A stretch of 64,000 nucleotides of DNA, from assembly GCA_043228905.1 (NCBI GenBank), contig JBHGNT010000009.1:6386001-6450000 (forward strand), written 5' to 3'. This DNA is from Azolla caroliniana (Eukaryota; Plantae; Polypodiophyta). Shown piece by piece: positions 980 through 58,100 of the stretch. Each line of letters begins with the position of its first letter. Positions within the stretch are counted from its first letter, which is position 1. The translations under genes were made by a program, and so were the position numbers. The notes below the pieces were generated by a model, which saw only the letters and a program-made list of their open reading frames with translations, did no database searches and had not been told where the DNA came from.

Positions 980-1157
980 ACACACAAGGAGTAAGACACA
1001 GAGAATACGCAAGGTAAGGTGTATTAACAAAGGAGAAAGACTCAACATTATACAAGGTGGGAGAATTGGTTGTGTGGAACACTTACATGTGTTTCATTGT
1101 TGTAAAGAATCAAGAGATGGATTCTGTGCAGCGGAATAGATATGAACTATGTGTGTG

Positions 1158-1352: not shown

Positions 1353-1424
1353 TGATGTGGCAAGACTCGAACCCATGACCTTATGCTACATGGGTCGAGC
1401 TCTTGACCATTACACCATACATTG
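1353..1424 (-). other. tRNA-like Pol III A/B-box module inside LTR C (degenerate, not a functional tRNA)
   Basis: Minus strand: A-box TGGTGTAATGG (1417-1407) and B-box GGTTCGAGTCT (1373-1363). The 44-nt offset equals tRNA positions 8 to 52. Confidence 0.6.
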
Positions 1425-1848: not shown

Positions 1849-2621
1849 ATGGAAATTGTTAGCGCTCAGGAATACCAATCTGTTTTCTCAGAGCTCTAGT
1901 GGTTAAAAGAGAAATTTATAGCACTAGAACAAGAAAATCATCGTTTGTTGGGGGATCTTCAACAAATAACGTTGGAAAAACAACAACAACATGGGGAGCT
2001 GATGTTACGTGTACAACAACTCGAAGCGACTATCGTATCATTACAACAACAAGGATCAAGCACTCAAGGGATTCACAAAGAACCCAAGATCAGTCTTCCT
2101 GCAAAATTTGATGGGACCCGATCATAGTTTAGAGGGTTTTTGAATCATGTACGTTTAGTGATACAAATGCATCCTTCTCGATATCCCACCAATGCATCAC
2201 GAGTTGGACTAGTAGGCACTGTCCTTAGTGGCTCAGCGTTAGCATGGTTTGCTCCATTGTTGGAAAAGGAATCTCCATTACTATACAGTTTTGAAGAATT
2301 TATAAGTGAGTTTAAGGCATGTTTTGGAGATACTAACAGCATAAGGACTGCAATCAACAAATTTCGGCGATTACACCAAGGTGACCGTCCAGCCTCCGCA
2401 TACACTGCAATTTCCGCCTACTCAATGCTGATATCCCTTGGGATGATCACGCATTGATGGAGCAATTTCGTTATGGTTTACGCAATGATGTCAAGGATTT
2501 ACTCTTGACCTTCCCCGAAGAGCCAAAGTCATTAACAGAAGCAATCAGTCGCGCGGTGAGATGCGACAACCGCCTCTTCGAACGACGTTCGGAACGACAA
2601 TTCCAGATTCTGAGGGCAAGA
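1849..2621 (+). pseudogene. Chromovirus C gag, N-terminal part (stops and frameshift)
   Basis: ORF-track fragments 1945-2127 and 2140-2457 are homologous to D gag 59630-60022 (retrotransposon gag domain). Confidence 0.8.
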
Positions 2622-3283
2622 TGTTAGGAATTCGACGCTTTCAAAACCTTCACCTCTCGGCCACAACCGAGGAAACACGAATCAATGCAGAAGTAAATCA
2701 AAACACAGAGAGAGACTCGAATGCACAGGGTTTAGCGTGGAAAACCCTAGACGGGAAAAACCACGGGAGTGCAAGACTCCAACTATCACTATACGCAGGG
2801 AATGTACAATGGCGAGCTGCAAGGCGACGACCTTGAGCTCGCTGTCCTCGCCACAGGCGGCGGTATTACACAGAGGCGTCGACCTCTTCCTTTCTCTCTC
2901 TCTCACTCTCTCTCTCGGTTGCTCTCACTTCACTCCCTCTAAGTGGAAAACAGAAAAATGAGCAACAACAACAAAACTGTTTGCCCTAAGTCATATTTAT
3001 ACACATATGACTTTCGGGCTATTTACAAATATAGCCTAGAGGGCCCTTGGAAAGCATATTCACAAATATGTCCCCGCATCTGGATCTCTCTCCGGGTACA
3101 TTCGTCATCCGGCTCCGTAGCCGGGGTCTTCATCATCCGGCTCCGAAACCGGGTCTTCGTCATCCGGCTCCGTAGCCGGGGTCTTCATCATCCGGTTCCG
3201 ATACCGGGTACTCCTCATTCAGGTCTTCATTCCCGATTCCCGGACATCTGACCATCCCATCCGGAGGGACCATAATCCCAACA
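2622..3283 (-). repeat. Copia A 3' LTR (662 bp)
   Basis: TGTTAGG...CCCAACA termini; direct repeat of 7399-8087; abuts PPT AGGGGGAGTT. Confidence 0.95.
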
Positions 3284-3293
3284 AACTCCCCCT

Positions 3294-6200
3294 TCACTTC
3301 GGCATGGGATGTCTTTCCAGTCCGACCCTCTTCCGGCACGCTTCCAGCTTGTCGGGTGTGAGCACTTTGGTCAGCATATCTGACCCGTTCTCGTCCGTGT
3401 GGATCTTCGTCAGCACGAACTCCTGGTCTTCTATCCTTTCCCGGATCCAGTGATATCTTCGCTGGATGTGCTTCGTCCGTGAGTGATAGGCCGCGTTCTT
3501 CGCAAGGTGGATGGCACTCTGACTGTCGCAGTAGAGTCGGTACTCCTCCTGCCGGATACCGAGCTCTCTAATGAAGTCCTTCATCCATATTATTTCCTTG
3601 CCGGCTTCAACAGCCGCCATGTACTCCGCCTCCGTGGTCGACAACGCAACCGTCTTCTGCAGCCTCGACTGCCACGAAACAGCTCCCCCTGCATACGTCA
3701 TCACATACCCTGATGTGGACCGGCTGGTATCTGCATCAGCCGACATATCCGAATCGGTAAAGCCATCGAGTTCGGGCTTACCGGAGCCGAATCGGAGGCA
3801 CACGTTTGCCGTGCCCTTCAGGTATCGGAGTATCCACTTGGCCGCGTTCCAGTGCTCTTTGCCGGGATTGCTCATGTACCGGCTCACCACTCCGACTGCA
3901 TATCCTATGTCCGGTCTTGTACACACCATTGCGTACATCAAGCTTCCGACGGCAGAGGCATATGGTACTTTCATCATGTCCTCCTTCTCAGCCTTTGTCT
4001 TGGGGCTTTGCTTGCTGGACAACCTGCAGTTTGCCGGGAGGGTTGACAAGACCGGTCTTGCTTCCGACATGTTGAACCGGTGAAGCACCTTTGTCACGTA
4101 CTTCTCCTGTGACAGCCACAACTGCTTCTTCTTCCGGTCCCGGATGATGTGCATCCCTAGTATTTGCCTTGCCGGACCCAGGTCCTTCATTGAGAAGGTT
4201 CGGTGAAGCGCTTTCTTCAGCATCCGTATCTTGACCTGGTCCCGTCCGACGATCAACATGTCGTCCACGTACAGGAGGAGTATTAGAAAGTCTCCTCCTT
4301 CGAACTTCTTCACAAACACGCAGTGATCGGACTGCGTTTTGTGGTACCCTTCGTCGGTCATGAAAGAGTCGAACTTCCGGTACCATTGCCGGGGAGCCTG
4401 CTTCAGTCCGTAAAGGCTCTTCTTCAACCGGCATACCAGGTGCTCCTTCCCTTTCTTCTCGAATCCTTCCGGTTGCTGCATGTAGATCTCTTCTTCGAGG
4501 TCACCGTGAAGGAATGCCGTCTTCACGTCCATCTGTTCTACCTCGAGGTCCATGCTTGCCGCTATGCTCAGCACCGTCCGGATGGAGGTCATCTTCACTA
4601 CCGGGGCAAATATCTCGTCGAAGTCGACGCCCTTCTTCTGCTGGAACCCCTTCACCACGATCCTGGCTTTGTATCTCGGGGGGTTTCCGGCATCTCCCGG
4701 TTTCAGCTTGAACACCCACTTGTTTCGAAGTGCCCGCTTTCCTTTCGGCAACTCCACAAGTTCATATGTGTGGTTCTCATGCAGGGAATCCATCTCCTCC
4801 TGCATGGCACTTAACCACCTGCGGCTATGGGTGTCAAGCTTTGCTTCTTCAAAACTCTCCGGCTCCCCCTCGTCGGTTAGTAGCACGTGCTCTGGTTCCG
4901 GAAATCTCCGGGGGGCCCTTCTCTCTCTTAGAGGATATCTCCGTTTCGGAGCTTCGGTAACCGGCTCCTCCGTTTCCTCTTCATCCGAATCCATTTCGGG
5001 ATCGGGGCCGGTTCCGGTATCAGTTTCATCTTCCTCGGCCGGTTCTGTTTCTTCACCGTCTTCGGCCGGATCCTCGAGTGCTAACCGGTCCCTTGCCGGT
5101 CGGGACTGCTCCTCGTAGAGTTGATCCTCACCGGTCGACTTGGAGGTCTTCATCTTCTTCTCCGACTCCCTGTCGGCGAGTGTCTTGTCCTCCATGAAGA
5201 TGATATCACGACTCCGGAATATCTTTTTGTCGACCGGGTCCCATACTCGGTAGCCGAACTCGTCATCGCCGTAACCGAGGAATATGCATGGCCGGGTCTT
5301 TGGATCTAGCTTTCCTCTCCGGTCCTTTGCCACATGCACATATGCGAGACACCCGAACACCTTCAGATGCCGGTAGGATACTTCCCTGCCGGTCCACACT
5401 CTCTGCGGCGTGTCTCCGTCCAAAGGTACTGAGGGTGATCTGTTTATCACGTATGTCGCCGTCGACATTGCCTCAGCCCAAAACCCCTTGGGTAATTTCG
5501 CATGCGCCAGCATACTCCGGACCCTCTCCATTATGGTCCAGTTCATCCTCTCGGCCAGCCCGTTCAGTTCCGGCGTCTTCGGCACAGTAAACTCGAGCCG
5601 GATTCCCTTCGAGCGACAGTACTCCTCGAACTGCCCCCGGTATTCCCCTCCGTTGTCCGCTCGTATCGCTTTCAGCTTCTTGCCGGATTCCCTTTCCACT
5701 CTCGCGTGGAGTTCTTTGAAAACGCACAACACTTGGTCCTTTTTCTTCAACGGTGCCGTCCATAGCTTCCGGCTGTGGTCATCAATGAATGTCACGAAGT
5801 GCTGGGCTCCGCCATGTGACTTCGTTTCTACTTGACACACGTCAGTGTGCACCAACTCCAATGGTGCGCTACGTCTTGTCGGTGGCCTTGAGTGGAAGGA
5901 GGTTCGGTTCTGCTTACCGGCCAGGCAATCGGTGCACTTCTCCAGGTGCACATGCTTCACTGGAATAAGGTTGTCTTCTGCAAGCCTCTTCATCCCCTTC
6001 TCACTCATGTGGCACAGTCTCTTGTGCCACAGCTCACCGGCAGTATCGGCTGCCACGTTCAACTCCTCCGGACACAACCAGGCATTCATAAGGTACAGTG
6101 TGTTGACTTTCCGGGCCCGAGCCACTATCAGGCTCCCCTTGCTGAACTTCATTACGCAGTTCCAGATGCTACCTGTGTAGCCTTCATTGTCTAGCCTCCC

Positions 6201-7367
6201 GGCCGAAATCAGGTTCAATCGAACCTCCGGAACGTGTCGGACATCCTTCAGCAACATTTTGCATCCGGTCGAGGTTGTCAACCACACGTCTCCTATGCCG
6301 GCAATCCGGCACGTACCTTCGTTTCCCATCCGAACGCAGCCATGCTCACCGGCTGTATAGGATGAGAAGTATCTTCTTTCCGGGGTCAGGTGGAACAACG
6401 CTCCGGAATCGACCACCCAAGTAGTCTCATCGCCGGCAATGTTTAGTTCACCTTCTTCGGTGATGAGCATGATCTCCTCTTCACTTGCCGCGAGTGCCGT
6501 CGTTCCTTTCCGGTCCTGCCCTCGCCGATCCGAACCATTCCGGTCCGTGGCTCCCCGGTAAGCACCGTTCCGTTCCGAAGACTTCTTCGAATCGGTGTCG
6601 TCGGCTCCGTTGTCTTTTCGGTAATGCCGACAATTCTTTCGGAAGTGCCCCGGCTTCCCACAGTGGAAGCATGTGGGCCTTCCTCTTGACTGCGACCGGG
6701 TCCCCGACTTCTCCCGTCTTTGCGGACTCCGGTTCCGTTGTCTTCCCCGATCCGATTCGGTAAGCAGCATCTTCGGATCGGAGGCCGGTTCTTTATCTCT
6801 CCGACGCGCTTCTTCGTTCAAAATGCTTGTCTTTACCGTTTGTAAGGACAAGTTATCTTCGGTGCAGGAGGTGCTGAGAGTCACCACCAAGTTCTCCCAG
6901 CTTTCCGGCAATGTACACATCAGCATGATGGCTTGCATTGCATCCTCCAACGAGAACTTGATCGTCGCAAGCTGGTTCACGAATCCCATGAACGTGCTTA
7001 CGTGTTCCACCATACTCTCGCCGTCCCGGTACTTGAGGTTCACTATCTTCCTCATCAGGGAGGTCCGGTTCAACGCATTCTTCCTCTCGTAGAGGCCCGA
7101 CAGCTTCTGCCACATCTCATATGCGTTGGTGTCGTTCGCCACATGTTGTAGAACGCTCACGTCGACGTATTGCCGAATGGTTGCAACGGCTTTCCGGTTC
7201 AGAAGCCTCCATTCCGTCTCAAGTACCCCCTTGGGTATTTCCGACCTGTCGATCGGTTCATACAGGTCCCGAACAATGAGCAGATCCTCCATCTTTATCT
7301 TCCAGTCGGCGTAGTTCTGCGCATTCAGCACCATCATCCCCGGCTGCCCGCTGCTGCCGCCTTCCAT
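3294..7367 (-). CDS. Copia gag-pol polyprotein (gag, CCHC, protease, integrase, RT, RNase H)
   Basis: 1360-aa ORF (track start 7376; first ATG at 7367). Motifs: CFHCGKPGHFRKNC, WVVDSGA, WHKRLCH, ELVHTDVC, FIDDHSR, RADNGGEY, NGLAERMN, QMDVKTAFLHG, LYGLKQAPRQW, YVDDML, TDSD, TEAEYMA, CDSQSAI. Confidence 0.96.
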   Translation of the reverse strand: MEGGSSGQPGMMVLNAQNYADWKIKMEDLLIVRDLYEPIDRSEIPKGVLETEWRLLNRKAVATIRQYVDVSVLQHVANDTNAYEMWQKLSGLYERKNALNRTSLMRKIVNLKYRDGESMVEHVSTFMGFVNQLATIKFSLEDAMQAIMLMCTLPESWENLVVTLSTSCTEDNLSLQTVKTSILNEEARRRDKEPASDPKMLLTESDRGRQRNRSPQRREKSGTRSQSRGRPTCFHCGKPGHFRKNCRHYRKDNGADDTDSKKSSERNGAYRGATDRNGSDRRGQDRKGTTALAASEEEIMLITEEGELNIAGDETTWVVDSGALFHLTPERRYFSSYTAGEHGCVRMGNEGTCRIAGIGDVWLTTSTGCKMLLKDVRHVPEVRLNLISAGRLDNEGYTGSIWNCVMKFSKGSLIVARARKVNTLYLMNAWLCPEELNVAADTAGELWHKRLCHMSEKGMKRLAEDNLIPVKHVHLEKCTDCLAGKQNRTSFHSRPPTRRSAPLELVHTDVCQVETKSHGGAQHFVTFIDDHSRKLWTAPLKKKDQVLCVFKELHARVERESGKKLKAIRADNGGEYRGQFEEYCRSKGIRLEFTVPKTPELNGLAERMNWTIMERVRSMLAHAKLPKGFWAEAMSTATYVINRSPSVPLDGDTPQRVWTGREVSYRHLKVFGCLAYVHVAKDRRGKLDPKTRPCIFLGYGDDEFGYRVWDPVDKKIFRSRDIIFMEDKTLADRESEKKMKTSKSTGEDQLYEEQSRPARDRLALEDPAEDGEETEPAEEDETDTGTGPDPEMDSDEEETEEPVTEAPKRRYPLRERRAPRRFPEPEHVLLTDEGEPESFEEAKLDTHSRRWLSAMQEEMDSLHENHTYELVELPKGKRALRNKWVFKLKPGDAGNPPRYKARIVVKGFQQKKGVDFDEIFAPVVKMTSIRTVLSIAASMDLEVEQMDVKTAFLHGDLEEEIYMQQPEGFEKKGKEHLVCRLKKSLYGLKQAPRQWYRKFDSFMTDEGYHKTQSDHCVFVKKFEGGDFLILLLYVDDMLIVGRDQVKIRMLKKALHRTFSMKDLGPARQILGMHIIRDRKKKQLWLSQEKYVTKVLHRFNMSEARPVLSTLPANCRLSSKQSPKTKAEKEDMMKVPYASAVGSLMYAMVCTRPDIGYAVGVVSRYMSNPGKEHWNAAKWILRYLKGTANVCLRFGSGKPELDGFTDSDMSADADTSRSTSGYVMTYAGGAVSWQSRLQKTVALSTTEAEYMAAVEAGKEIIWMKDFIRELGIRQEEYRLYCDSQSAIHLAKNAAYHSRTKHIQRRYHWIRERIEDQEFVLTKIHTDENGSDMLTKVLTPDKLEACRKRVGLERHPMPK

Positions 7368-7398
7368 TTTCTGCACTGCAGTCGCTCTGATACCAGAT

Positions 7399-8087
7399 TG
7401 TTAGGAATTCGACGCTTTCAAAACCTTCACCTCTCGGCCACAACCGAGGAAACACGAATCAATGCAGAAGTAAATCAAAACACAGAGAGAGACTCGAATG
7501 CACAGGGTTTAGCGTGGAAAACCCTAGACGGGAAAAACCACGGGAGTGCAAGACTCCAACTATCACTATACGCAGGGAATGTACAATGGCGAGCTGCAAG
7601 GCGACGACCTTGAGCTCGCTGTCCTCGCCACAGGCAGCGGTATTACACAAAGGCGTCGACCTCTTCCTTTCTCTCTCTCTCACTCTCTCTCTCGGCTGCT
7701 CTCACTTCGCTCCCTCTAAGTGGAAAACAGAAAAATGAGCAACAACAACAAAACTGTTTGCCCTAAGTCATATTTATACACATATGACTTTCGGGCTATT
7801 TACAAATATAGCCTAGAGGGCCCTTGGCAAGCATATTCACAAATATGTCCCCGCATCCGGATCTCTCTCCGGGTACATTCGTCATCCGGCTCCGTAGCCG
7901 GGGTCTTCATCATCCGGCTCCAAAACCGGGTCTTCGTCATCCGGCTCCGTAGCCGGGGTCTTCATCATCCGGCTCCGGAACCGGGTCTTCATCATCCGGT
8001 TCCGATACCGGGTACTCCTCATTCGGGTCTTCATTCCCGATTCCCGGACATCTGACCATCCCATCCGGAGGGACCGTAATCCCAACA
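7399..8087 (-). repeat. Copia A 5' LTR (689 bp)
   Basis: Adjacent to the tRNA-iMet PBS; carries one extra 27-bp unit relative to the 3' LTR. Confidence 0.95.
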
Positions 8088-20762: not shown

Positions 20763-20827
20763 AGGAACCCAAAATTCTACTCAACATTCCTCCCAACATT
20801 CCTTTTCTGTAAATTCCCATTCCTTCA

Positions 20828-23800
20828 ATGCAGCAGCAGCAGCAGCATCAGCACGGATTGAGTTCCATGAAGAAGAAGAAGAAGCTGCAGAGCTCTCACA
20901 TTCTCTCTCTTTCTCCAGCAGAAGAAGAAGAAGAAGAAGGAGAAGGAGAAGGAGAAGGAGAAGGAGAAGGAAACAGCAGCAATGGAAGCTTACTTCAAAC
21001 AGTGAAGAACACCACCAAGGAACAGAGCATACCTGTCTCGCGGCATTCCCCTCATGTTGCCTCGATCGGGTTATTATCATCCGATTCACCCTTCCTTTGC
21101 CTCCTCCTAATTTTGAGCTCCTTCCTTAGCGTCTGCTGCGCCTCCGACAGCCTCCTCCTCTTCGACGCCTCGGCTCTTCTCGAAGCTAAATCTTCACTCT
21201 CCGACCCTCTCGGCATTCTCTCTTCTTGGTCCCAGCAATCCATCTCTTCAGTCTGTTCTTCTTGGTATGGTGTTTCCTGCTCTCCTAGTTTCTCATCATC
21301 ATCATCATCATCATCATCTTCTTCTTCTTCTTCTTCATCATCATCATCATCTCCATCGCCTTCTTCTTCGTCTTCTTCACGAATTACATCTCTGCATCTC
21401 CCTAACTCTACCCTGTCTGGCACACTACCCCTCTCATTTACCTCTCTATCCTCGCTAACATCGCTCGATCTCTCATCGAACTCTCTCTCCGGACCCATCC
21501 CTGCCTCGCTCTCTCGCCTCTCCGATCTCCGATCCCTCTTGCTCTTCTCCAACCAATTCTCCGGCTCTCTCCCGCCGTCTCTCTCCCTCCTCTCTTCGCT
21601 CTCCATACTCCGAATCGGAGACAACCCCCACCTCTCAGGTTCCATTCCACCTTCTTTCTCTAATCTCCAAGGCCTGCGAATCCTCGGCCTCGCCTCCTGT
21701 AACCTCACAGGGTCCATCCCACCTCAGCTTGGCTTCCTCTCCAATCTCACTATCCTCCGATTAGATGGCAATTCTCTCTCCGGACATATCCCGGTCGAGC
21801 TTTCCTTCCTTTCTTCCCTAACCGTCCTTCAGCTTGAAAACAACAACCTTAGTGGCCACATACCTCTCCAACTAGGGAAGCTTACTCAGCTGGAGGACCT
21901 CTCCCTTTACACTAATTCTCTCTCCGGCGCCATACCGAAGGAGCTTTCTAAACTAACACTGCTCACTAATCTTAACCTCAAGGAGAATCACCTCAGTGGC
22001 CCTATACCTCCAGAGCTAGGAGGCTTAAGTAGCCTCACTATTCTTGACCTTTCTGTTAATAACCTCTCTGGTACCATCCCGGCTTCCCTCGGAAACCTCT
22101 CTAAGCTAGAGTTCCTCGTGCTGCGAAACAATAGCTTGTCGGGGACAATACCGAAGAGCCTGTTCAATATCCCTTCTCTCACACACCTGTTTGCATCCAA
22201 TAACTCTCTCTCCGGCAGCATACCAAGTGAAATTGGGAAATGCGTATCGCTCGAGCAAATCGCTATAGACACAAATCTGTTGAGGGGGAACATACCAACA
22301 GAGATCGGCTATCTCACTAACCTTACAGATTTGATACTGTTCAACAACACCCTTGCAGGAAGCATTCCGTCTTCATTAGGTAATACAAGCTTAAGAGTGC
22401 TTGCTCTTAATGGCAATGGTCTCTCCGGACCTATACCACCAGAGATAGGTCAGCTAACTCATCTCAAGTATTTCTATCTGTTCAGCAATAACCTCACGGG
22501 TCCCATCCCACTGCAAATCGGCAATTGCGCAGCGTTAGAAGAGATTGATTTTTTCTCTAACCATCTCTCGGGGCCTATTCCATCCACCCTTGGCCAATTG
22601 AAGTCTTTAAAATGGCTCCACCTCCGGGAGAATAGTTTATCAGGCGAAATACCTTCCTCCTTGGGGAATTGCAGTAGCTTAATGATGCTAAATTTAGCGT
22701 CTAATTCATTAATAGGTGGAATTCCGACCACATTTGGATTGCTGTCCCACCTCACCATCTTGATGCTCTATCAGAATCAACTCAGTGGTTCTATCCCATC
22801 TGAATTGATGAATTGCAAGAGACTCGAGAGAGTGAATATGTACAACAATGAATTAAATGGTGTGATTCCGGGGTTAGGATGGAGCGGAAGCCTAGTTTTA
22901 CTTGATTTAACTAATAATTCGCTTGTCGGGCCGATACCCAAAGAGCTTGGAAACTCAAGAGGCATATTTAGACTAAGGCTCGGTCATAATAACCTCAATG
23001 GCAGTATCCCACCTGAATTAGGGAACATATCTAGCTTGGGTCTTCTGGATTTTAGCTCCAATAATCTCTCAGGTGAAATCCCATCTCAGCTTAGTCAATG
23101 TGGTGTCTTAATGCAGCTTTTTCTTGACCATAACCAGCTTTCGGGACCAATTCCTTCCAGCTTCCAATATCTAACCCTCTTAACGAGGCTTGACCTGTCA
23201 TTCAACGGGTTCATCAATGGTAGTATACCACAGGAAATAGGTAATTTATCAAAACTTGAACTTCTCCAACTAAGTGGCAATCAACTTTCTGGTTTCATAC
23301 CAGTGCAATTGGGACGCCTTTCTCAACTCACAGTTCTAGACTTGGATAGCAATCAATTGAGTGGATCGATACCATCATCGATTGGTTACATGGGCAATTT
23401 ATTGGAGCTTCGATTATCTCAAAACTTCTTGTCTGGGCCAATCCCATCAGAATTGGGAGAATTATCTAGCCTCCAAGTCATATTGGATCTTAGTTTCAAT
23501 AAACTCAATGGATCTATTCCACCTTCCTTTGCCAATCTTCGAGTGTTACAAGGTCTGAACTTGTCGAATAATGAGTTATCTGGAGACATTGGAGACTCTG
23601 CCATTGCATCACTACCGAGTTTGATTACGTTAAATATTTCCAGCAACATGCTTAGCGGATCAATTCCAGAGTCGATTTCAAGGTTCCCAATAAGTACATT
23701 CATGGGAAATATAAGACTTTGTGGTATGCCTCTGCAACAATGTGGATTAACAAAAACTCCAGGGGCTGAAAACCTATCGAATGGGCAATTGGCAGGCATT

Positions 23801-25699
23801 ATATCGGCTGCAGCTTTGCTCATGATGGTTTTTATTCTCTTCATAATCACTCTGGTTGAGAGAAGAAAAAGATGGGGAACAAAATCACCATCGATCGTTA
23901 AGGAACATAGCTTTCCGAGCAATAGGGGATTCAGTTGGACATTTAATGAGATAATGCAAGCAACTGACGAGTTAAGCGATAATAATATCATCGGATCGGG
24001 TGGATTTGGCACCATTTACAAAGCTGTGATGAAATCGGGCCAAGTCTTGGCCGTCAAGAAAGCATGTATAGATGATGAGGAGTCTATATACGACAAGAGT
24101 TTCATGAGAGAAGTTGATACATTAGGGAAGGTGCGGCATCGGCATTTGGTCAAACTTATTGGATTTTGTTCACACAAGGGTCTAAATTTGCTAGTCTATG
24201 AGTACATGCCCAATGGCAGCTTATGGGATAGGTTGCATGGTCAACTTGCCAAGAAACTTTCATGGGAGGATAGATTTAAGATAGCAGTCGGCATAGCAGA
24301 GGGTATTGCTTATTTGCACCACGATTGCCAACCAAAGATTATTCACCGAGATATTAAATCAAGTAATATTCTACTTGATTCCGAAGGAGAAGCTCATGTT
24401 GGTGATTTTGGACTTGCAAAGCAAGTTGATGCATCGAAGGTGACACAATCAGTCTCGATGATCTTCGCAGGCTCTTATGGCTACATTGCTCCAGGTAAAA
24501 AAACAATCACTGAATCTTTCAACACTTACATCGTTGCATAATGGAGGGTAAAATAATGCCGGTAAAATAAAAAGGAACATAATGGACTTGCTATATATAA
24601 ATGGCTGGCTGATGCAAATTAATAGACTAGGAAAACCCAACAAATTCAAGTATTTCGGGTTTTCATCATTCAAAATTTCACAATATTTCAAAACTACCTA
24701 TAAAAGGAAACTTGGTCATAAAATTAGGCAAACATTTCCAAAATATGTCTGAGAAATAGCACATTTGGTGATAAATGTTCTTCTTTACACACATGTTCTA
24801 TGAATTTTCTTTTTCCTTTTTTTCTCATTTCAGCAAGATCAATCTTTTGACATTGGTTTTGTTTCGGTTGTGAATTTGGTCAATTTCGCGCAGAATATGC
24901 TTATAGTATGAAGGCTACAGAGAAAAGTGATGTTTACAGTTTTGGTGTAGTTCTTATGGAACTAGTGTCTGGAAAATTACCTGTGGATCCTAGCTTCCCT
25001 GAGGGCATGGATATGGTCGCATGGGTAAGATCACATTTGGCAGGAAATGAAAATGTGAAACCAGTGGTTGATCCAAGGATTGGGATCCTCACAGAAGGCG
25101 AGGCTTCCGAAGTGTTATCGGTAATGCAGCTCGCTCTACAGTGCACTAGTTCGCAACAGGTATTAAATAGGACTTTCAAGTTTTTATGTGCTCATGTGTG
25201 ATATTGCATTGTATCTATGTATTTCCACCATGCTCACATGCTCATGTATGTATTTCATGCATTCATGCACAAGAAACAAAATAAAAGGCAACTTTCATAG
25301 AATTAAATTTCACTAATTGTCATCGTATTTTGGGCATGAACTTACTATGAATTAGAGGAATTGCATTACATTTCACAAAAACTTCATGATATTTTAGGGA
25401 TTTTGGGCATATCGTCTAGTATCATGAATACATGTTACTACGTTAATAGGAGTTAAATATACCACTACATAATTATCCTACCAATGTCGTCTTGATTTTA
25501 CGTGCATGATCAGCACAAACATTGTGAGTTAATAGTTCTTTTTTGGGTTTTCTTTTCACAGAGTGAGCGGCCAAGCATGAGAGAAGCTGCCGACAAGCTA
25601 GACAGAGCAAAGAGGCAAGGCAGGTGCTTCAGTTTTGATGAAAGCATATCAAAAGCTTTCATATCCCCCTCTTGTAAAGAGATGATAATGAAACGGTAG
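20828..25699 (+). CDS. GSO1: GSO1/SGN3-like LRR-XI receptor kinase; join(20828..24494,24894..25159,25562..25699), 1356 aa
   Basis: Hydrophobic signal segment, LRRNT C-x-W-xGVxC, about 30 plant LRRs, TM segment, RD kinase (IGSGGFG, HRDIKSSN, DFG, GSYGYIAPE). GSO-like motifs as recalled: LRIGDN...LASC, HLRENSL, RLRLG, RHRHLVKL...GLNLLVYEYM. Both introns are GT-AG and splice in frame (4071 nt in total). Orthology is not tested. Confidence 0.88.
24894..25159 (+). CDS. GSO1: LRR-RLK exon 2 (kinase subdomains VIII-XI)
   Basis: Acceptor CGCGCAG|AA restores [23 protein letters not shown]; donor CAG|GTATTA at 25160. Confidence 0.9.
25562..25699 (+). CDS. GSO1: LRR-RLK exon 3 (ERPSM motif and C-terminal tail)
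   Basis: Polypyrimidine tract and CACAG acceptor; supplies the invariant subdomain-XI Arg (SERPSMRE); TAG at 25697-25699. Confidence 0.82.
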   Translation, partial: SERPSMREAADKLDRAKRQGRCFSFDESISKAFISPSCKEMIMKR

Positions 25700-33580: not shown

Positions 33581-33979
33581 TGTCAAAGTTAATATGCGGA
33601 AGCTTTGACAAACCGGTTTATCCGGTCAACAACAGAAAATAGAGGAAGAAGGTTTAATGGAAGCTTAGGACACACAGGAGAGACAGAGAGAGTAAAAAGC
33701 ATAAACTCAATTCAAAATAAAACACTATGTACATACAATGTGCTCAGTGAGCACATTTATACAAGTCCTTACACGGACTAATAGAAGTACTGACATGTAC
33801 TTCAATGCTCATATGAGCGACTGACACTGACTCCCAAAAATATGCCTATGAACTAGGCTAGATTCGTAGGCCTCTAACGGCCTACCGATTACAATCTGAT
33901 TCAGCTCCTGGTTCTGGATACCGATCCGGCTCTCGCTTATTCAGATGATCCGGATCTAGTTGAGCTTGTTCGTTCAACA
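33581..33979 (-). repeat. Copia G 3' LTR (399 bp)
   Basis: TGTCAAAG...TTCAACA termini; homologous to the sequence from 39027. Confidence 0.88.
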
Positions 33980-39026: not shown

Positions 39027-39767
39027 TGTCAAAGTTAATATGCGGAAGCTTTGACAAACCGGTTTATCTGGTCAAAAACAGAAAACAAAGGAAGAAGGTT
39101 TAATGGAAGCTTAGGACACATAGGAGAGAAGGAGAGAGCAGCAAACATAAACTCAATTCAAAATAAAACACTTTGTACATACAATGTGCTTAGTGAGCAC
39201 TTTCATACAAGTCCTTACACGGACTGGCAGAAGTACTGACATGTACTTCAATGCTCATACGAGCGATTGACACTGACTCCCAAAAATATGCCTACGTACT
39301 AGGCTAGATTTGTAGGCCTCTAACGGCCTACCGGTTACAATCCGATCTGGCTCTTGGTTCACAACCGGCTCTACCGGATAACAACAGAAAATGAACTAAG
39401 GTTTAATGGAAGCTTCAAAGAACACACAAAGAGAGCGGGAGAGACAAAGAGAGCAGAACAACATAAACTCAAATTCAAAATATCACTCTATACATACAAA
39501 TGTCCTATAGAACACTCTTTATACAAGTCCTTAAAAAGGACTAATAGAAGTACTGACAAGTACTTCAATGCTCGTATGAGCAACTGTCACTAACTCCAAG
39601 AAATATGCCTACCTACTAGGCTAAGACTGTAGGCCTCTAACGGCTTACTAGTTACAATCCGATCTGGCTCTCCAATCCAACTTTTGGTTTATTTAACCGA
39701 TCCGGATATCGATCCGGCTCCGGCTTATTCAACTGGTTTGGATCTGGTTGAGCTTGTCCGCTCAACA
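39027..39767 (-). repeat. Copia G 5' LTR fused in tandem to a related LTR
   Basis: 39027-39360 matches the 3' LTR. 39361-39767 is a more divergent relative lacking its first ~27 bp and ending CTCAACA. Confidence 0.75.
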
Positions 39768-40263
39768 ATATGTTCTACATCCCATTCTAAAGCCTACCAT
39801 AGGCACATTTTAATAGTGCGAGTATAATAGTCAATATAATAACTTACCAATGATAGTGTCTTGTGGACGTGCATCAGATTCGTGTGTCCATATGGGCAAA
39901 ACCTCTAGGGTCTTGGACCACAAAGATGGATGAGACGGACAGAATTCAAGAAAAAGAATTTGGCTCAACAAAACAGAAATGGAAGATTAGGGCAAAGAGT
40001 GTAGCATAGGCTATAGGGGGATTTGAACCTAATACCTTTATGCATGAAGAAGATAGAATCTCACGAAAACAATATTATCTGATAGATAAAGAAAAAAAAG
40101 AATAAATAAAATGAACCCTTGGTTCTTCCGATATTAGAGTGCTTTGTTGCCTTTTCTTTTTCTCCTTTGCCAACCTCATCTAAAGTGCCTTTATATAGGG
40201 TTTTCCGTGTGGTTAGTGTTTAGAATCCCTTACCACTTTGTGTACATGGTTTAACCTTCAATA

Positions 40264-44588: not shown

Positions 44589-47230
44589 TGTTGAGAATCA
44601 AGCTCAACATAGTGTAATGTGTGAACACACCTTTGAGAATCTATGTGCACTCAAAGGTCAAGACTCATACCACTCTCTACACATTAAACTATGTGTCATA
44701 GAATCATATTCTATGACACATAATTAATGAGTTACATATTCCTCATGACTATGAGTCTTCAGATTCCCCAAGAGAGAGAGTGGTTGTTGTAAGTTAATGA
44801 AGAGAGAGGGTGACTCTATATAAAGCACCCTCCTTATACTTCATACTAAGTCGGTTGTGACTCCTTGTAATGCTACATTTTGTATTTCCTATTCTACTTG
44901 TGAATATACACCTTCTTCTTGAGTATTCCTTTTTCTATCTATCTTGTGTTCTCTCTTCTCTCCTCTAATTCCTCTCACACATACACATAACACACATCTC
45001 TTCCACTACAAAAGAATCACCATCGATTCTTTACATGGTATCAGAGCGATTTGGTAACTCGACCTAGCCCACTCGCCTCATCGTGATCGTGTGTTGTACT
45101 CTACGCCGAAGTTCAAGAAGAACCGGTTCATCGCTATCGTAGTACCACTACATAGCTTGTGTTCGAGAGAGAAGAAAAAGAAGAAAGGAAGCTTAATTGA
45201 TAGTGAATACTCAAATTTGGAGCGCTCTCCCTAGCGAGAAGTTGAACCGAAACAACTTCGCATCTTGGGAGTACAAGATGCACCAATACCTTGTCGGCCA
45301 AGGCTATTGGGGTTACATCAAGGGAGCATAAGAAAACTGACCCGACTCGGAAGCCGCCGACTATGCAACGTGGGAGCAAGCGGCAAGTTGAGTGATGTAT
45401 TGCTTGGTGACATGTGTTCATGACCACATGCTTGGGTACATTCGAGAAGTCGAGATGCCGAAGGAAGTGTGGGAGAATCTACGAAAGATTTTCGCCGCCA
45501 ACACAACCGCGAGAAAGCTTCAACTCCGCCAAGAGTTGAACAACATCCAACAAAGGGATATGTCCATCACAAGCTACACCTTGAAGATCAAGGAGCTTTG
45601 CGACTCGCTTGGCTCGATAAGCGTCAATGTGGATGATGATGATGTTGGTAGACAGGTCCCTCCGGATGGGAAGGGAGAAGAACAGTGCCGACGAACAAAC
45701 TCGGCCGAGGCCTGTCGGCCTCGGCCGAAACGGTATGAACCGGATGGGGAGAACCCGACTTCGGAGAGTCGGATGGTGTAGGCCCGGTATGAACCGGATG
45801 AGGAGTACCCGACTGCGGAGAGTCGGATGGTGTAGGCCCGGTATGAACCGGATGAAGAGTACCCGACTGCGGAGAGCCGGATGGAGCCCATCGAGGCTAC
45901 ATTTGTAAATAGCCAAAAAGTCATATTAGTATAAATATGACTTAGGGCAAATTTGGTAGTGGTTGTCATTCTTGTTATTATTCTTTGTTGTTGGTGCAAG
46001 AAGAAATCAGAGCGTGTAACTGTACAGAGAGAGAGAGAGGTAGAGAGAGACGAGGTCGAAGCCTCTGTTGTAACCGCCGCCTGTGGCGAAGATCTGAGAG
46101 CACGAGGTCGTTGCCTCGGTGATCTCACTGTTGTATATTTCTGCATAGTGACAGTTTGCAGCTTGTGGGCTGCCGTGGTTTTTCCCCTATTTTGGGGTTT
46201 TCCACGTATACCTCCTGTGTACCATCTCTCCTCTTTTGCGTCGCGTTTCATTACCTGTTTTTTCTGTGTGTGAAAAGAATCTCGGTTGTGGCCGAGCGTC
46301 GGACATAAGGAACGTCGAGTTCTCAACAGATGAAATGGTGCAAATATGCCTTGACGGCCTTGAACCACGGTTTGGTGCAATGAGGACCGCCGTATTAGCA
46401 TGGGAGAATCCGCCCTCCTTCTTCGATCTTCAATCCATGTTGTTGGTTGAAGAAAACCATGTTCGAATGAGGAGCAACGCCTCGGAAGGCCACATGCTCT
46501 ACACGCATTCAGACGGAGGAAGAGGATGCGGCCGTGCAAGAAGAGGCCGATTCGGCCAAGGACGAGGCGGACGAGGCTCGAATTACGAAAACAACTCGCA
46601 ATTTCGGCATCAAGACGGAAGCCATCGAGGAACCTTCGGAAGAAGGGGGAGCTTCCATTCCAGTCCGAGCTAACAAAACTCGGTCGAATGTGGATATTGC
46701 GGAAAAATTGGCCACCGCGAAGAAGAGTGCCGAAAGAAGATGCGTGAGTCGGCTTCCACTAGTCGACAACTCACCAATTACACCGCCGACTCTGAGTACG
46801 ATGATTACGGTGGATTATTCGTAATGAGACATAGAGTGAATTCTATGTCGGCCTCTACTTCTACTAGTGCCTCCAGTCCGGAAGATGTATGGTTTGTCGA
46901 TTCCGGTGCCTCAAACCATATGATGTCGCATCAAGAATGGTTTTGAGAACTTTGAGAGCCAGACCGACCCGGCTATGTCGAAACTAGAGACGACACTACG
47001 CACCCAATTCGGCACATCGGCAATGTTCCGATCGGAAAAGAAGGTAAGCAAACTTACATTAAAAATGTCTTGCATGTACCAACTATCACGAAGAATTTGG
47101 TCTCCGTCGGCCAAATTGTAGAGCAAGGAATGCAAGTTCGATTTAATCAAGGTGGTTGCTTCATTGAAAAAGAGGGCCGAATGTTCATTCTCGACTCACA
47201 CGAGATGAAGTCGGCCATGTTCACAAAAGG
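44589..47230 (+). mobile_element. Ty1/copia E (B family; 5' LTR, PBS, gag, protease; 3' part lost)
   Basis: LTR 44589-45035 is homologous to the reverse complement of the B LTR; PBS TGGTATCAGAGC 45036-45047; gag and WFVDSGASNHM match B. Confidence 0.88.
45643..46328 (+). mobile_element. Solo LTR I (relative of the copia A LTR) inserted in E gag
   Basis: TG..CA termini; TSD GATGA at 45638-45642 and 46329-46333; removing it restores NVDDDEMVQ; shares GGTCCCTCCGGATGGG and ATATGACTTAGGGCAAA with the A LTR. Confidence 0.9.
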
Positions 47231-50051
47231 CCGGGAAAAGAGCCACCATGGGGACCAATCTACAATTTGTCACCAACCGAGCTAGAAGTGGTTCGAGCCT
47301 ATATAGAGGAGAATTTGGCAAATGGTTTCATTCGACATTCGAAATCTCCAGCCAACGCACCCATTTTCTTCGTTAAGAAAAAGGATGGATCACTTCGTCT
47401 CGTCATAGATTACCGTGGGTTGAATAAAGTCACCATCAGGAATAGGTATGCACTTCCCCTTATCTCAAGTTTGTTAGAACGGATCAATGGTGCAAGGTTC
47501 TTCACAAAGATCGACTTACGAGGAGCGTATAACCTCGTATGGATTCGTCCAGGAGATGAATGGAAGATTGCGTTTTGTGCCAGATATGGGCACTTCGAGT
47601 ATACGGACATTGATTTTGAGAGTCTTAAGAAGGCATTTACATCATCTCCTATTTTAGCTCATGTTGATCCAGAAAAATCATTCATCATTGAAGCAGACGC
47701 GTCAGATTTTGCCTTGTGTAGCATTCTGTCTCAACAAGGCGATGATGAAAAGCTACATCCTGTGGCTTTCCATTCACGCAAGTTTGACTCTGTGGAAATC
47801 AATTATGAAATTCATGATAAGGAGCTATGAGCAATAGTGAACTCTTTTACGCAATAGAGGCGTTTTCTAGAGGGGTCTTCTCATCAAGTCATCGTATTTA
47901 GTGATCACAAAAATCTTGCCTACTTTTAGAATGCTCGTGTGTTAAATCGACGTCAAGCTCGGTGGGCCCAATTCCTCACTCGTTTCGACTTCAAAATTAC
48001 ATATCATCCGGGGAAGCAACAAGGGAAGGCAGATGCATTATCATGACGTTCGTATCTAGCACTGCGTCCCGGTGAGCCTACTTTCGATAACCAAGTAACG
48101 CAGGTCTTCGGTATGCTCTTGGATTCCCACATTATCGATACCATACGTGGGGACTTGAAGACAGATGTTTTCGCTCAAGCCATTCTACCACAAATTGATC
48201 CCTCTCGAGCATCTTGTTCATAGTCGCAACAACCAGGTACGAACTATCGACAATTTGAATGTCATGATGGATTTCTATTCTTTAAGAAACTCTTGTATGT
48301 TCCTAATGGTACTTGTAGCCTTCAAGTAGTCCAAATTTGTCATGACACATATATAGCTGGGCATTTTGGTAGTACTAAAACATTAGATTTAGTACAACGA
48401 TCATTCTGGTGGTCCCATATGCGACAATTTGTCGAAGATTTTGTTCGGACTTGTGATACATGTTGCAGAGAAAAAATGTCAAGGCATCATCCATATGGTT
48501 TATTAGAACCATTACCAATTCCAAGCAAGCCATGGCAATCCATTGCCCTAGATTTCATCACAGATCTTCCAGTCTCTAAGGGATTCGATGCGAGATCTTA
48601 ACAGTAGTAGATCGATATACGAAGATGGCCCATTTCCTGCCATGTACTAAGGAAATCTCTAGTGAAGAAACCGCCGAAATTGTCATGCGTGAAGTATATC
48701 GGCATCATGGCCTTCCCGATAGTATCATCAACGACCGTGGACCCTAGTTCGTCTTGAAGTTCTGGAAGCATCTCTTTAAAATGCTTAAGGTCACTTGTAA
48801 CCTCTCCTCCGGCTACCACCCGCAAACAGACGACCAAGCAGAATGAACAAATCAAACGTTGGAGCAGTATCTTCGGTGCTTTTTAAGCTATCATCAAGAT
48901 GACTGGGCGGATATTCTCCACTTCGCCGAATTTGCATATAATAACTCTGTCCACTCATTGACAAAGGTGACACCATTTTATGCTTACATGGGCTGTCACC
49001 CCTGGTGGTGTGTATTTGAAACCCTAGAGTTACCTACAAATCCTTGTGCAGAGGATCGTTTGGAGCGGCTATGTAAGATACAAACAGATTTATCTACTCA
49101 TTTACAACAAGCTCAACAAACACACAAGGTTTACGCGGATCGTCATCGACTTCCATCAAGTTTTGACATTGGAGATTGGGTGTGGCTACTACGACGACAT
49201 ATCAAGACTACTCGCCGATGCGAGAAGTTGGATTAACGGCGATTAGGTCCATTCCGTATTATCGGAAAAATTAATGATGTCGCTTTTCGTCTCGATCTAC
49301 CTCCACAACTTCGGATACATCCGGTGTTTCATAGTTCTCTCCTCGAACCCTATCAAGATAGCACCATCCCAGGTCATATTAAACAACCTCCACCCCCAAT
49401 CGAGCTTGAAGATGGACTTGAGTACGAGGTTGCCGCCATCCTTGATTCCAAGATTGTTTGCAACAAGCTCTACTATTTAGTCGATTGGCTAGGATATAGT
49501 CCTAGTGAGCGTACTTGGGAACCAATAGAGAATGTGACCAATGCTCATGCTCTTCTTGAAGACTTCCATCGTCAATATCCAGACAAACCGGGTCCTCAAT
49601 CCAAAATAACTCGTGACACTCGTTGTTTTAAAGGGGAAATACTGTCATGATATGGCAAGACTCGAACCCATGACCTTATGTTACATAGGTCGAGCTCTTG
49701 ACCATTAGACTATATGTTGTAATACGAAGGATAATATTTTCATTTAAGTTTTACTATAGAAAACTGATGTATATTCCAGATTTCTCTAGAACATTCTAGA
49801 AACTTCAGGAGTACTCCTGAGAACACTATAAAAGGAGGCACAAGGCATTATTTCGAACCAAATCGGTTCAACGCCAGTCTTAAGCCTCCTAGCTACTGTT
49901 GTATATTCCCTTAACATAATATATATCTGTTGTTATCCTCATTCTCTCTCTCTCTCTCTCACTCACTCTTTCCTTCTCTCAAGAGTTCTACACCTCTGTT
50001 AGTACTAATCCTCATCTTTTAGTACTAATTCCTTCTCTATTTTAGTACTGT
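47231..50051 (+). mobile_element. Chromovirus J, 3' half (RT with internal deletion, RNase H, integrase, chromodomain, PPT, 3' LTR)
   Basis: [27 protein letters not shown], His/Cys integrase; chromodomain EYEVAAILDSK...YLVDWLGY...TWEP; PPT 49631-49642; LTR 49643-50051 lacking its last ~8 nt. Confidence 0.9.
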
Positions 50052-54652: not shown

Positions 54653-55100
54653 TGTTAGAACCAAGAGAGAAGGTAAAGTGATAGAAGAAAGATATAAAGA
54701 GATCACAAGGAGAGGAATGAAATGATAAGACAAGAATGAATGTATTAAAGTAGAATAAGAATGGATACAAGATAGGTGATGAGAGCTTAAGATTGGTGTT
54801 GATTCGAATTGGTTTTGAGAAGAATTGTATGTCCATATTTATAAGTTCCTATAGAATAACCTAGTGATTTCTATAATGTTCTAGAATGTTCTAGACCTAG
54901 AATATTCTAAGATGTTCTAGGATATTCTAGAATGTTCTAGGATGTTCTAGAACATTTACAATATTGGTCTATTACAAGAAGTAATTTTTATTATTTTATA
55001 TAATCATATGTTATCTTAATGTTTAGGTTCTTGATTATGTATTACAAGGTCTTGGGTTCAAGCCCAAGTGAAGTCACATAATGTTCACGGATTCATGACA
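54653..55100 (-). repeat. Chromovirus D 3' LTR (448 bp)
   Basis: Direct repeat of 60370-60790 with 27 extra bp (20 bp of TTCTAG units and AGGTGAT). Confidence 0.92.
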
Positions 55101-58100
55101 CTATCCCTCCTCTTAAAACGACGAGTGGAAGGAGTTGTTAACAATTCAGGGTCGGGTTTGTTGGGATAGTGACGATGGAAGTCGTCAATAAGATCTTGAG
55201 CATTACAAACATTATCGATGGGTTCCCATGTGCGATCGCTCAGAGTATAGCCTAGCCAATCAACTAGATGATACAACTTATTGTGCATAATCTTTGAATC
55301 TGGAATGGAGGCTACCTCATACTCTGGGCCATCGGCAAGTTGGAGAGGAGGCGGTGGTGGTACGACACGATTGGGAATCGAGCTGGTCTGGTAAGGTTCC
55401 AAAAGAGAGTTGTGAAAGATTGGATGAAGCCGCAAACTTGCAGGAAGATCAAGGCGGAATGTTGCATCATTAATCCACTTCGTGATGACAAAAGGACCCA
55501 CGCGTTTATAATCTAGTTTATCATACGGTCGAGTAGTCTTTATGTGACGACGTAACAACCATACCCGATCACCAACCTTGAATGGAGATGGAAGACGATG
55601 TCGATCTGCATGGGCCTTATGTTGGGCTTGAGCTTTCTGAAGATATGAAGACAACTCAGACTGAAGATTTTGTAGTCGGTGGAGGTGTTGCTCTGCACTA
55701 GGGTTTGGTGAGATCACTGGAATGCCCAAGACACACCATCGAGGATGGTTGCCAGTATAGGCATAGAAAGGTATGACCTTGGTAGAAGAGTGTATGGTGT
55801 TATTGTATGCAAACTCTGCAAGATGCAATATATGACTCCAATCATCTTGTTGATAACTGATGAAACATCAAAGATACTGCTCAAATGTTTGATTTGTGCG
55901 CTCTGTTTAGCCATCAGTTTCGGGATGATATACTGAAGAGAGTTTGTAAGAGATTTGGAGCACATCACATAGGTGCTTCCAAAAGTGAGAGATAAATTGC
56001 GGTCCACGATCACTAATTATGTCGTTTGGAAGATCATGATGGCGAAATACTTCACGCATAATGATATCTACTGTTTCTTGACTACTGATGCTTTTTACGC
56101 AAGGTAGAAAATGTGTCATCTTGGTAAACCGATCCACTACGGTTAAATTAACATCAAAACCTTGTGAAGGTGGAAGATCTGTAATGAAATCCATAATAAT
56201 TGACTACCATGGCTTGCTCAGAGTCGGCAATGGTTGTAACAACCCATAAGGATGATGCTTAGGCATTTTAGCTCGACAACATGTGTCACATGTGCGAACA
56301 TAATCTTCAACGAATTGTTGTAAATGAGGCCACCAAAATGATCACTTCACTAGCTCCATGGTCTTGGCAATACCAAAGTGTCCGGCCATATGGGTATCAT
56401 GACAGTGCTCCAACACTCGAAGGCTTGGTGATCCATCAGGGACATAAAGTAGATTCTTGTAGAAAAGTAAGTTATCTTGCCACTTGAACTCCTTATAGCG
56501 TCGAGATGTCCCTGGCAATGTGGAGCAAAATTCATGATTTGGATCAAGGTGGGTGAGGACATCCTTCGCAAAATCATCAGAGTTAAGTTGTTGTCGAATA
56601 GTATCAAGAAGACTTGAATCCAATGGCGTGGCACAAACCGTGGTTGCTTGTAGCTTTGTTGGACCAAGGAGAACTTGCTTTTGATTGTCGAAAGCTGGAT
56701 CTCTAGGGAGAAGTGCCAAATATGAGCGTCGAGATAGAGCATCTGCTTGCCCTTGTTGGTTCCTTGGGCGGAAAATTATCTTGAAATCAAAACGAGTTAA
56801 AAATTGTGCCCACCGAGCTTGTCTCATATTTAGCACTTGAGCTGTCTGAAAATATGTAAGATTTTTGTGGTCACTATAAATGATGATTTGATGAGGCGAA
56901 CCTTCTAGGAAATGTCGCCATTGCGCAAAAGAGTCGACCACAACTAGTAACTCTTTGTCATGCACCTCATAGTTGATCTCTGCAACATTAAACTTTCTTG
57001 AGTGAAACGCGATTGGATGTAAGTGCCCATCTTCACCTGGTTGTGATAGGATGATAAATGGCTTTTCTGGATCAACATGAGCTAAGACAAGAGCTGATGT
57101 GAATGCCTCTTTCAACTGAGTAAAGGCTTTGTCTGCTTCAGGAGTCCAAACAAATGCTTGATTTTTCTTGGTGAGTTGAGTAAGTGACAATACAATCTTC
57201 GAATAATTCCATATGAATTTGCGGTAGAAGTTGGCAAATCCAAGGAAACACTGGACATCACGAACGGAACTTGGAGTATGCCATTCCAATACTGTTTGAA
57301 CTTTCACTTGATCCATGAAGATACCTTTGGATGAAATGGTATAACGCAAGAACTCAACTTCTTTGCATCAAAACTGCACTTCTCTAGTTTGGCATAAAGA
57401 CCATACTCTCTTAAGCCTTGGAGTACCTTCCGGACATGTATATCATGCTCCGCTTGTGTTCTAGAGAAAATCAATAGATCATCTAAATAGATGATAAGAA
57501 AGATATCTAAAAAATCTTGGAAAATGTCATTTGCCATATGTTGAAACATGGCAGGAGCATTTGTGAGCCCAAAAGGCATAACTGTATACTCAAAATGGCC
57601 ATATCGAGTGCGAAATGCAGTCTTCCACTCGTCTCCCGGTTGAATATGGACAAGATTATATGCACCCCTTAGATCAATCTTGGTAAAATGCTTTGCCCCA
57701 CCAATGCACTCTAAATGACCGGAAATTAAAGGTAGAGCATACCTATTTCTTATTGTCAATTTATTTAATCCCCGATAATCCGCGACCAAACGAAGTGAGC
57801 CGTCCTTTTTCTTCACAAAAAAGATAGGAGCACCAGCTGGAGACTTTGAATGTCGAATAAATCCACTTGCAAGATTCTCGTCAATGTATGCTCGAAGAAC
57901 CCCAAGCTCCGTTGGTGATAGATTGTAGATCGAACCCCATAGTGGCTCTTTTCCTGGTTGTAGATCAATGGGACAATCGTATGGCCGATACTTTGGAAGT
58001 ACACTAGCTTTGACTTTGTCGAAGACATCAACATATTCTTGGTACTTTTTAGGAATGTAGACCTCTGACGTCCCTTGAGTGTCACTAGAAGGTGCAGTTG

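Follow-up and report, generated by a model that had tools for sequence, protein, structure and literature searches.

Many LTRs (long terminal repeats) of the protein-coding Ty3/gypsy chromoviruses analysed here carry a tRNA-type A and B box module at their tip, which is directed outwards and antisense to the element. A tRNA-type module in coding elements and in this reversed direction is novel relative to LTRs of the Helenus or Cassandra type. The initial annotation of this DNA had placed the module in protein-coding, chromodomain-bearing elements, and its distribution is broader than claimed, comprising 14 LTR types of two element lineages.

LTR-tip modules and their elements in the window

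The window, i.e. the whole analysed stretch of 64,000 nucleotides, consists of nested copia and Ty3/gypsy retrotransposons surrounding an LRR receptor kinase gene. This receptor-like kinase has a 1242-codon open frame (20813-24541, + strand), and among its high-coverage matches listed an RGI-like protein of a liverwort comes closest (53% over the kinase region). The gag-protease region of element C holds a nested copia element (3294-7400, - strand), whose gag-pol frame runs uninterrupted over 1368 codons and whose LTRs agree by about 95%, and the copia LTR that received C contains tandem 214-bp duplications (752-1348). The following chromovirus features were identified:

1348-1754, + strand: 5' LTR of element C (TG...CA), a Ty3/gypsy chromovirus inserted into a copia LTR
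1532-1538, + strand: TATA box of the putative Pol II promoter of the C LTR, facing away from the module
1565-1576, + strand: segment of the C LTR complementary to the primer-binding site, presumed RNA 5' end and self-primer; 11/12 in C, 12/12 with the copy of J
1757-1768, + strand: primer-binding site of C, self-priming type, self-complementary to the LTR rather than tRNA-complementary
1849-2608, + strand: decayed gag of C, broken by the copia insertion 2609-8087 and resuming to about 8777
47228-49642, + strand: decayed pol remnant of J (RT, RNase H, integrase, chromodomain) and polypurine tract
49643-50051, + strand: 3' LTR of J, C family, right end truncated, preceded by chromodomain and polypurine tract
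54653-60790, - strand: full-length element D with 5-bp target duplication and LTRs at 60370-60790 and 54653-55100; 6.1 kb including the 426-bp insertion of K
55169-55321, - strand: chromodomain of D with the aromatic-cage residues Y, W, Y
58556-58981, + strand: solo LTR K inside D, flanked by a 5-bp target duplication; resembles the LTR of a coding relative (L043) to 76%

Three different LTR families had been proposed for the module. Three types do exist (C/J, D and solo K, 54-58% pairwise over the first 300 nt), but C and J form one family since their LTRs are 89% identical over 299 nt. The domain order RT-RNase H-integrase-chromodomain is that of Ty3/gypsy elements and a feature of the Tcn1 clade, as is the aromatic cage Y, W, Y found in the chromodomains of D and J. 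Moreover, the primer site is complementary to the element's own LTR (11/12 in C, 12/12 against J, 11/12 in D), and by this sequence complementarity it is of the self-priming type that also characterizes the Tcn1 clade. The only named proteins among the 120 matches listed were two fungal ones. The module-bearing elements are probably Tcn1-like; they are likened to this clade by its described features. The kinase matches indicate a land plant as host, and the reported distribution of Tcn1-like elements (PMC6317226, PMC2864245) suggests a seed-free one. Their coding capacity comprises gag, RT, RNase H, integrase and chromodomain in a gag-pol of about 5-6 kb, and one relative (L001) has a 1235-codon open pol frame. 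A TATA box is located beyond the module on the opposite strand, its LTR position being 185 in C and within 149-270 for 10/12 family representatives.

All A/B box pairs that the initial annotation had described in C, J, D and K were found at their places and with their offsets. The module features of the window, including further ones, are:

1353-1424, - strand: tRNA-like module of C; A box 1417-1407, variable-loop motif 1381-1377, B box 1373-1363 (offset 44); score 17/17
1425-1464, - strand: AT-rich stretch (90% AT) upstream of the C module in Pol III sense, a putative TFIIIB site
49648-49719, - strand: tRNA-like module of J; A box from 49712, B box from 49668 (offset 44); 17/17
60695-60765, + strand: tRNA-like module of the D 5' LTR, antisense to D; A box 60702, B box 60745 (offset 43); 16/17
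55005-55075, + strand: tRNA-like module of the D 3' LTR; decayed A box with one G lost (55012/55055); 15/17
58556-58628, - strand: tRNA-like module of K; A box 58621, B box 58571 (offset 50); terminal 8-bp hairpin
58201-58257, + strand: second tRNA-like A/B module in the protease-RT linker of D, antisense to pol; E 0.019 to the tRNA profile

The boxes were scored against a fixed textbook A/B consensus with a maximum of 17 and allowed offsets of 40-55. The antisense strand reached 15-17 in 5/5 LTR tips of the window, and the sense strand of the same tips 11-13. All five tips exceeded their dinucleotide shuffles (p 0.01-0.02, 100 shuffles each). Among 852 window tiles of 150 nt a score of 17 was obtained in two (C and J), 16 in none and 15 in 14. 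The occurrence of the A/B boxes in the window by chance is excluded. In copia LTRs 6/6 window stretches scored 12-14, which is background; one copia LTR has a terminal hairpin with 8-bp arms and is without A/B boxes (33581-33610 and 39027-39056).

Across the families T8 of the A box is located 66-103 nt from the LTR start. The stems previously noticed in K and D are real but out of register with the tRNA T-arm, the loop of K including G53 and the stem of D closing a 6-nt loop. The terminus of the K LTR (58556-58578) matches an internal segment starting with TGTCA in another LTR type (L017, positions 23-45), and the pattern in K looks as if the LTR end had been reset inwards to a T-arm-like hairpin. 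The module of the C family (1353-1424) can also be read as a long hairpin in which the B box pairs with the stretch after the A box (z -5.1 versus mononucleotide shuffles). This hairpin is peculiar to the C family, the other 13 LTR types having z values of 1.0 to -2.3.

Distribution, ancestry and history of the module

Relatives were collected with an alignment of 45 integrase-chromodomain proteins as query, resulting in 79 metagenome loci, the best 79 of at least 558 confirmed. LTR starts were located by pattern; six of them were placed manually, and one false call was discarded. Without an LTR start or with less than 85 nt of LTR, 17/79 loci were excluded, and 62 were scorable. Twenty-two of the 62 tips belong to one contig series with near-identical copies of both D and C, and this series was taken as the host lineage. 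Among these best 79 of at least 558 loci, and with tips counted as positive at p up to 0.05, the module was present in 20/22 host-lineage tips versus 0/40 tips from other sources; the two negative host-lineage tips were L012 and L019. Position and orientation had been assumed to be conserved, and indeed the boxes face outwards, antisense to the element, in 25/25 positive tips. Positive tips score 14-17 of 17 and real tRNAs 16-17. The offset from A to B box is 43-44 in 18/20 positive tips, though 40-55 was allowed, and 43-45 in 11/11 real tRNAs. Because the families are related, the counts of carrier families do not represent independent events. The C family is abundant in 4/4 DNA runs, which are labelled as four organisms, and no relatives were found in the viral contigs searched. 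L012 (3255-3400), a member of the second lineage with 160x coverage, has a degenerate module (score 13) followed by tandem repeats and represents a natural case of loss.

A tRNA ancestry of the module, as proposed earlier, is supported by several sequence features. Positions 44-48, the variable-loop motif of tRNAs, did not enter the score, yet they are kept with a mean majority of 0.91 over the 14 LTR types. The columns invariant over all types (G18, A44, G46, T47, G53, T54 and T55) are tRNA invariants and box positions, the conservation of box columns being partly circular as the alignment rows were anchored on the boxes. Positions 44-48 contain GTC, which has been described as a signature of tRNA-internal B boxes (PMC3159450) and was present at 46-48 in 7/11 control tRNAs. 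These positive controls were 11 annotated tRNAs of E. coli, thus bacterial and not from the host; a degenerate tRNA pattern had matched none. Over 419 kb the profile of the E. coli tRNAs ranked module sites 1-11 with a best E of 6.6e-4, while the first other match had an E of 2.1. The eleven sites are nine LTR tips and two copies of the pol-linker module of D. A tRNA origin is also supported by the seven ARAGORN calls at the 80% threshold, as all of them are antisense and located in host-type tips.

The cloverleaf is lost. Neither the detection by tRNA models nor the covariance above shuffled sequence that one would expect from the initial annotation was found. ARAGORN in default mode called no tRNA in the window and none in 55/55 loci scanned; at 90% it called 0, at 80% 7 (all antisense, all in host-type tips) and at 70% 35 mixed sites, these counts being uncorrected for shuffles. 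The Rfam tRNA model gave no match to E 10 in the window, in 1330-1460 or in 10 loci. Stems were paired in 50.2% of cells versus 49.3% in shuffled alignments (acceptor 38.7%, anticodon 40%), and covariation was 0.238 versus 0.219 with no consensus fold across types. Double-change cells, one of five measures and unreliable for related rows, stood at 15 of 500 shuffles. A functional tRNA gene was rejected, as there was no tRNA-model match at normal thresholds and no covarying cloverleaf stem. The absence of cloverleaf covariance removes a role of tRNA structure and leaves a role of the boxes as DNA unaffected.

Conservation is concentrated in parts of the module. The identity between families is 0.61 in the module (0.47 shuffled) versus 0.56 in the next 60 nt of U3 (0.53 shuffled), the module being more conserved than neighbouring U3. 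Within the module the majority amounts to 0.43-0.47 in the acceptor strands, 0.91 at 44-48 and 0.81 at 52-62. A-box variants differ by family but remain near the box consensus. The CpG-containing core of the B box is intact in 8/9 high-coverage versus 5/13 low-coverage contigs (Fisher p 0.03), as expected if active lineages keep the core and dead copies decay; a collapsed assembly also retains ancestral bases. Variant tables within families, made from sequencing runs, list A-box variants at positions 9, 12 and 14 among others; the tables are blank within about 30 nt of the stretch end or LTR start and hide the B box.

It appears improbable that the module is a neutral, decaying relic, i.e. the head of a tRNA-derived SINE that became fixed in ancestral LTRs on one or two occasions or was distributed by exchange of LTRs. 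Single copies do decay freely, and the tight box spacing may reflect descent alone. However, the flanking U3 lies near the shuffle level and the module above it, conservation within the module is uneven and a B box with a CpG would not survive a uniform decay. Besides, no SINE tail or target duplication was seen by eye beside the module. A relic would also agree with the tRNA-like heads outside LTR tips (three in L070, one near 40020 and one in the pol linker of D), which make a SINE-like donor plausible. The three heads in L070 (270-560) do not all point in one direction; they lie next to a (GA)n run, outside recognised LTRs, and possibly belong to a free SINE-like donor family. The head at 40010-40043 (- strand) is degraded, B-box-like and located between elements (E 1 and 17 to the module and tRNA profiles). 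The protease-RT linker of D is 27 codons longer than in the sister family L003, and it is this linker that reads antisense as the second module; in L001 linker-module sites are found at about 1007-1059 (-) and near 6344 (-). In a related element with 80% protein identity the linker B box is kept, encoding RTQD, and the rest of the linker has diverged; two families were seen.

For the history of the module we used a pol tree of 984 columns and 33 loci and a tree of 80 rows, both calculated by a quick method. The carriers formed two groups on the pol tree, and the same pattern was seen in the 80-row tree. One carrier group is sister (SH-aLRT 99) to five loci from another source, four of them with scored LTRs and all four without the module. 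Forcing the host-lineage rows together was rejected (AU p 2.8e-5, the group having been named after the first tree). The carriers belong to two non-sister element lineages, with pol identities of 71-78% within the first carrier group and 50-60% between the groups. Profile matches across the groups are weak (best E 5e-4 and 1.3e-3), and common descent and shared tRNA likeness are inseparable thereby. The pattern may have arisen by two captures, by swapping of LTRs in the host or by a single old gain with later losses. The module is absent in 12 related loci with scored LTRs on the same 43-row branch, i.e. seven of the sister group of lineage 2, four of a neighbouring group and L019. Given these 12 loci and the degenerate module of L012, the module is dispensable for the clade.

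Possible roles of the module

Short non-coding TRIMs are known to contain small-RNA promoters in their LTRs, from which the element is transcribed (PMC10886601). Here, the module is fixed, reversed and present in coding families that keep a Pol II-type TATA box, which implies another role or an unusually persistent relic. Its layout has features of a type-2 Pol III promoter, namely the A/B consensus at workable spacing and an AT-rich upstream region. The 40 nt upstream in Pol III sense have a mean of 82% AT in 12 family representatives, as compared to 60% in deeper parts of the LTR and 54% in the corresponding stretch of 36 negative LTRs. These 40 nt fit the description of a TFIIIB site in PMC13578239; the AT-rich stretch could be part of the Pol II promoter instead.

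As the best explanation we tentatively favour, by analogy with known barriers, a tRNA- or SINE-derived TFIIIC site that is kept to protect the Pol II promoter of the LTR. An outward tRNA-type A and B box would have been captured from a tRNA gene or a tRNA-derived SINE into the U3 tip. TFIIIC would bind the module and place TFIIIB on the AT-rich stretch between module and TATA box, and this complex would limit silencing that spreads in from the flank, so that the neighbouring Pol II promoter would be held open in repeat-rich chromatin. As a part of U3, the module is restored at the 5' end of each new copy, where it lies between the host DNA and the promoter, and selection on the module would presumably act via the element's own replication. 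In fission yeast tDNA barriers require TFIIIC and Pol III, and their activity is orientation-independent (PMC2040200). Therefore, a barrier alone leaves the fixed outward direction unexplained. A further point against a TFIIIC site is that A44, G46 and T47 are invariant in 14/14 types yet lie outside the core B box, and pairing at the RNA level fits them at least equally well.

Such pairing would be Ty3-like: the U3 stretch after the polypurine tract would anneal to a host tRNA, at its T and D arms, and aid dimerisation, packaging or strand transfer. The precedent is the 3' half of the bipartite primer site of Ty3, where U3 pairs with tRNA-iMet through the T arm and D arm of the latter (PMC5371799). 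Pairing would account directly for the antisense orientation and the U3 position, and the best-kept block, which includes A44, G46 and T47, is contiguous (positions 44-61). Moreover, 23 of the 48 departures from the majority in 44-62 are G>A or T>C and thus wobble-compatible, and 8 are C>T or A>G. However, this bias is weak per column (1.9 versus 1.1) and not independent. The longest identical run in 44-62 has a median of 6 nt over 91 family pairs, transversions occur at 49, 50 and 59, and the AT-rich flank is left unexplained. Furthermore, a tRNA primer is not needed because the elements appear to be self-priming, with a complementarity of 11-12/12 in C, J and D. With regard to a bipartite site of the Ty3 type, U3 is tRNA-complementary in general and, by comparison within the element, the 5' site is self-complementary. 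All in all, we regard a role in tRNA pairing as unlikely. If true, it would extend the U3-tRNA interaction of Ty3 to self-priming elements.

The complete type-2 layout with its AT-rich upstream stretch would also suit an outward Pol III transcript as the selected product. If started in the 3' LTR it would be antisense to U3, polypurine tract and integrase end, and if started in the 5' LTR it would extend into the flank; its role would be to regulate the element or feed small RNAs. The LTR of foamy retroviruses gives rise to Pol III RNAs, which in the bovine virus come from U3 (PMC7693620, PMC3993851), and the long hairpin of the C-family module would fit such a product. This hairpin is not shared by the other 13 types, though, and there is neither a consensus fold nor a conserved poly-T terminator: a T4 run was found within 10 nt beyond the LTR start in 5/22 3' LTRs, none was present within 120 nt in 7/22 3' LTRs, and 4/14 types had one between B box and LTR end. 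We therefore consider a selected transcript improbable, to the same degree as the relic.

The boxes might also serve as a landing pad that draws Pol III-targeting retroelements, or the element's own integrase, into or beside the LTR. Ty3 and TRE5-A target TFIIIC/TFIIIB sites, and an isolated B box suffices for TRE5-A (PMC3159450). Nevertheless, none of the five module-bearing LTRs of the window is interrupted upstream of the boxes, and sufficiently long family copies align through. Five insertion flanks tested scored 11-13, which is background, and the share of contigs continuing into unlike sequence was 0 in 4/4 DNA runs. Such a landing pad is very improbable.

A more far-reaching and rather doubtful version of the favoured TFIIIC reading is that autonomous plant chromoviruses domesticated a tRNA promoter as a portable TFIIIC barrier, which would move along with each insertion and which the two non-sister lineages of one host would have acquired separately or swapped. 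If so, it would be the first Pol III barrier in plants and a counter-silencing device of coding LTR elements, and many TFIIIC sites dispersed over the host genome would derive from it.

Comparison with known systems

The Tcn1 clade is the closest match for the elements themselves. Shared features are the Ty3/gypsy order, an aromatic cage in the chromodomain, self-priming as predicted, LTRs of about 400-440 bp with TG...CA ends and a 5-bp target duplication (PMC6317226, PMC2864245). In contrast, a tRNA-like LTR segment is unmentioned in the available Tcn1 descriptions (PMC6317226, PMC2864245).

Helenus TRIMs (TRIMp3) resemble the module most. [quoted passage not shown] Their proposed origin is a SINE insertion into the LTR, with Selaginella as the one plant case in the available text (PMC10886601). 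However, Helenus elements are non-coding and non-autonomous, with 311-1263 bp (about 1.3 kb or shorter), and tRNA-primed (PMC10886601), whereas the elements described here encode gag-pol (D has 6.1 kb), keep a TATA box and have a self-priming look. Rather than to a tRNA, their primer site appears complementary to their own LTR (11-12/12 by comparison within the element). Moreover, the boxes of Helenus are proposed to transcribe the element itself (PMC10886601), and here they face out; the box orientation in Helenus is unstated in the available part of that source. With these three features differing, the elements are not Helenus. Autonomous partners of Helenus are expected to use Pol II and to be without such an LTR sequence (PMC10886601). 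Cassandra and Ajax TRIMs also have a small-RNA-gene promoter within the LTR, but it is 5S-derived, the elements are non-autonomous and the promoter of Cassandra drives its own RNA (PMC10886601).

In the open-access literature we found no description of tRNA-type boxes in LTRs of coding plant chromoviruses. According to Kojima not a few Repbase LTRs contain tRNA-like parts, of which only short TRIMs were analysed in the available text (PMC10886601), and database entries may therefore already hold similar cases. Modules of this kind can inflate tRNA gene counts, and Helenus has been described to do so in rust fungi (PMC10886601). For a fern, more than 7,500 annotated tRNA genes have been reported with no proven cause in the available text (PMC13578239); a link to the modules is a lead only, as ARAGORN in default mode called none of them. 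The available supplement of PMC6786969 contained nothing relevant to tRNA counts.

At the RNA level, the bipartite primer-binding site of Ty3 is comparable in that the T and D arms of a tRNA have their complement in U3 RNA. Ty3 is tRNA-primed and pairs with one tRNA (PMC5371799), whereas here the primer site looks self-directed and the tRNA-like stretch varies by family. The Pol III miRNA cassettes of foamy viruses likewise place A/B boxes in the LTR of an autonomous retroelement, but terminators and hairpin products were demonstrated by experiment in those viruses (PMC7693620, PMC3993851), and the module has no conserved terminator or fold.

The tDNA and TFIIIC barriers of yeasts are similar in that A/B-box DNA lies beside repeat-rich chromatin (PMC2040200, PMC3159450, PMC13578239), and their mode of action is what we propose for the module. 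These barriers are host-encoded, fixed and experimentally established in fungi (PMC2040200, PMC3159450, PMC13578239), whereas the module is a predicted site on a mobile element. [quoted passage not shown] If TFIIIC binds the module, these elements would offer a high-copy test of such barriers in plants.
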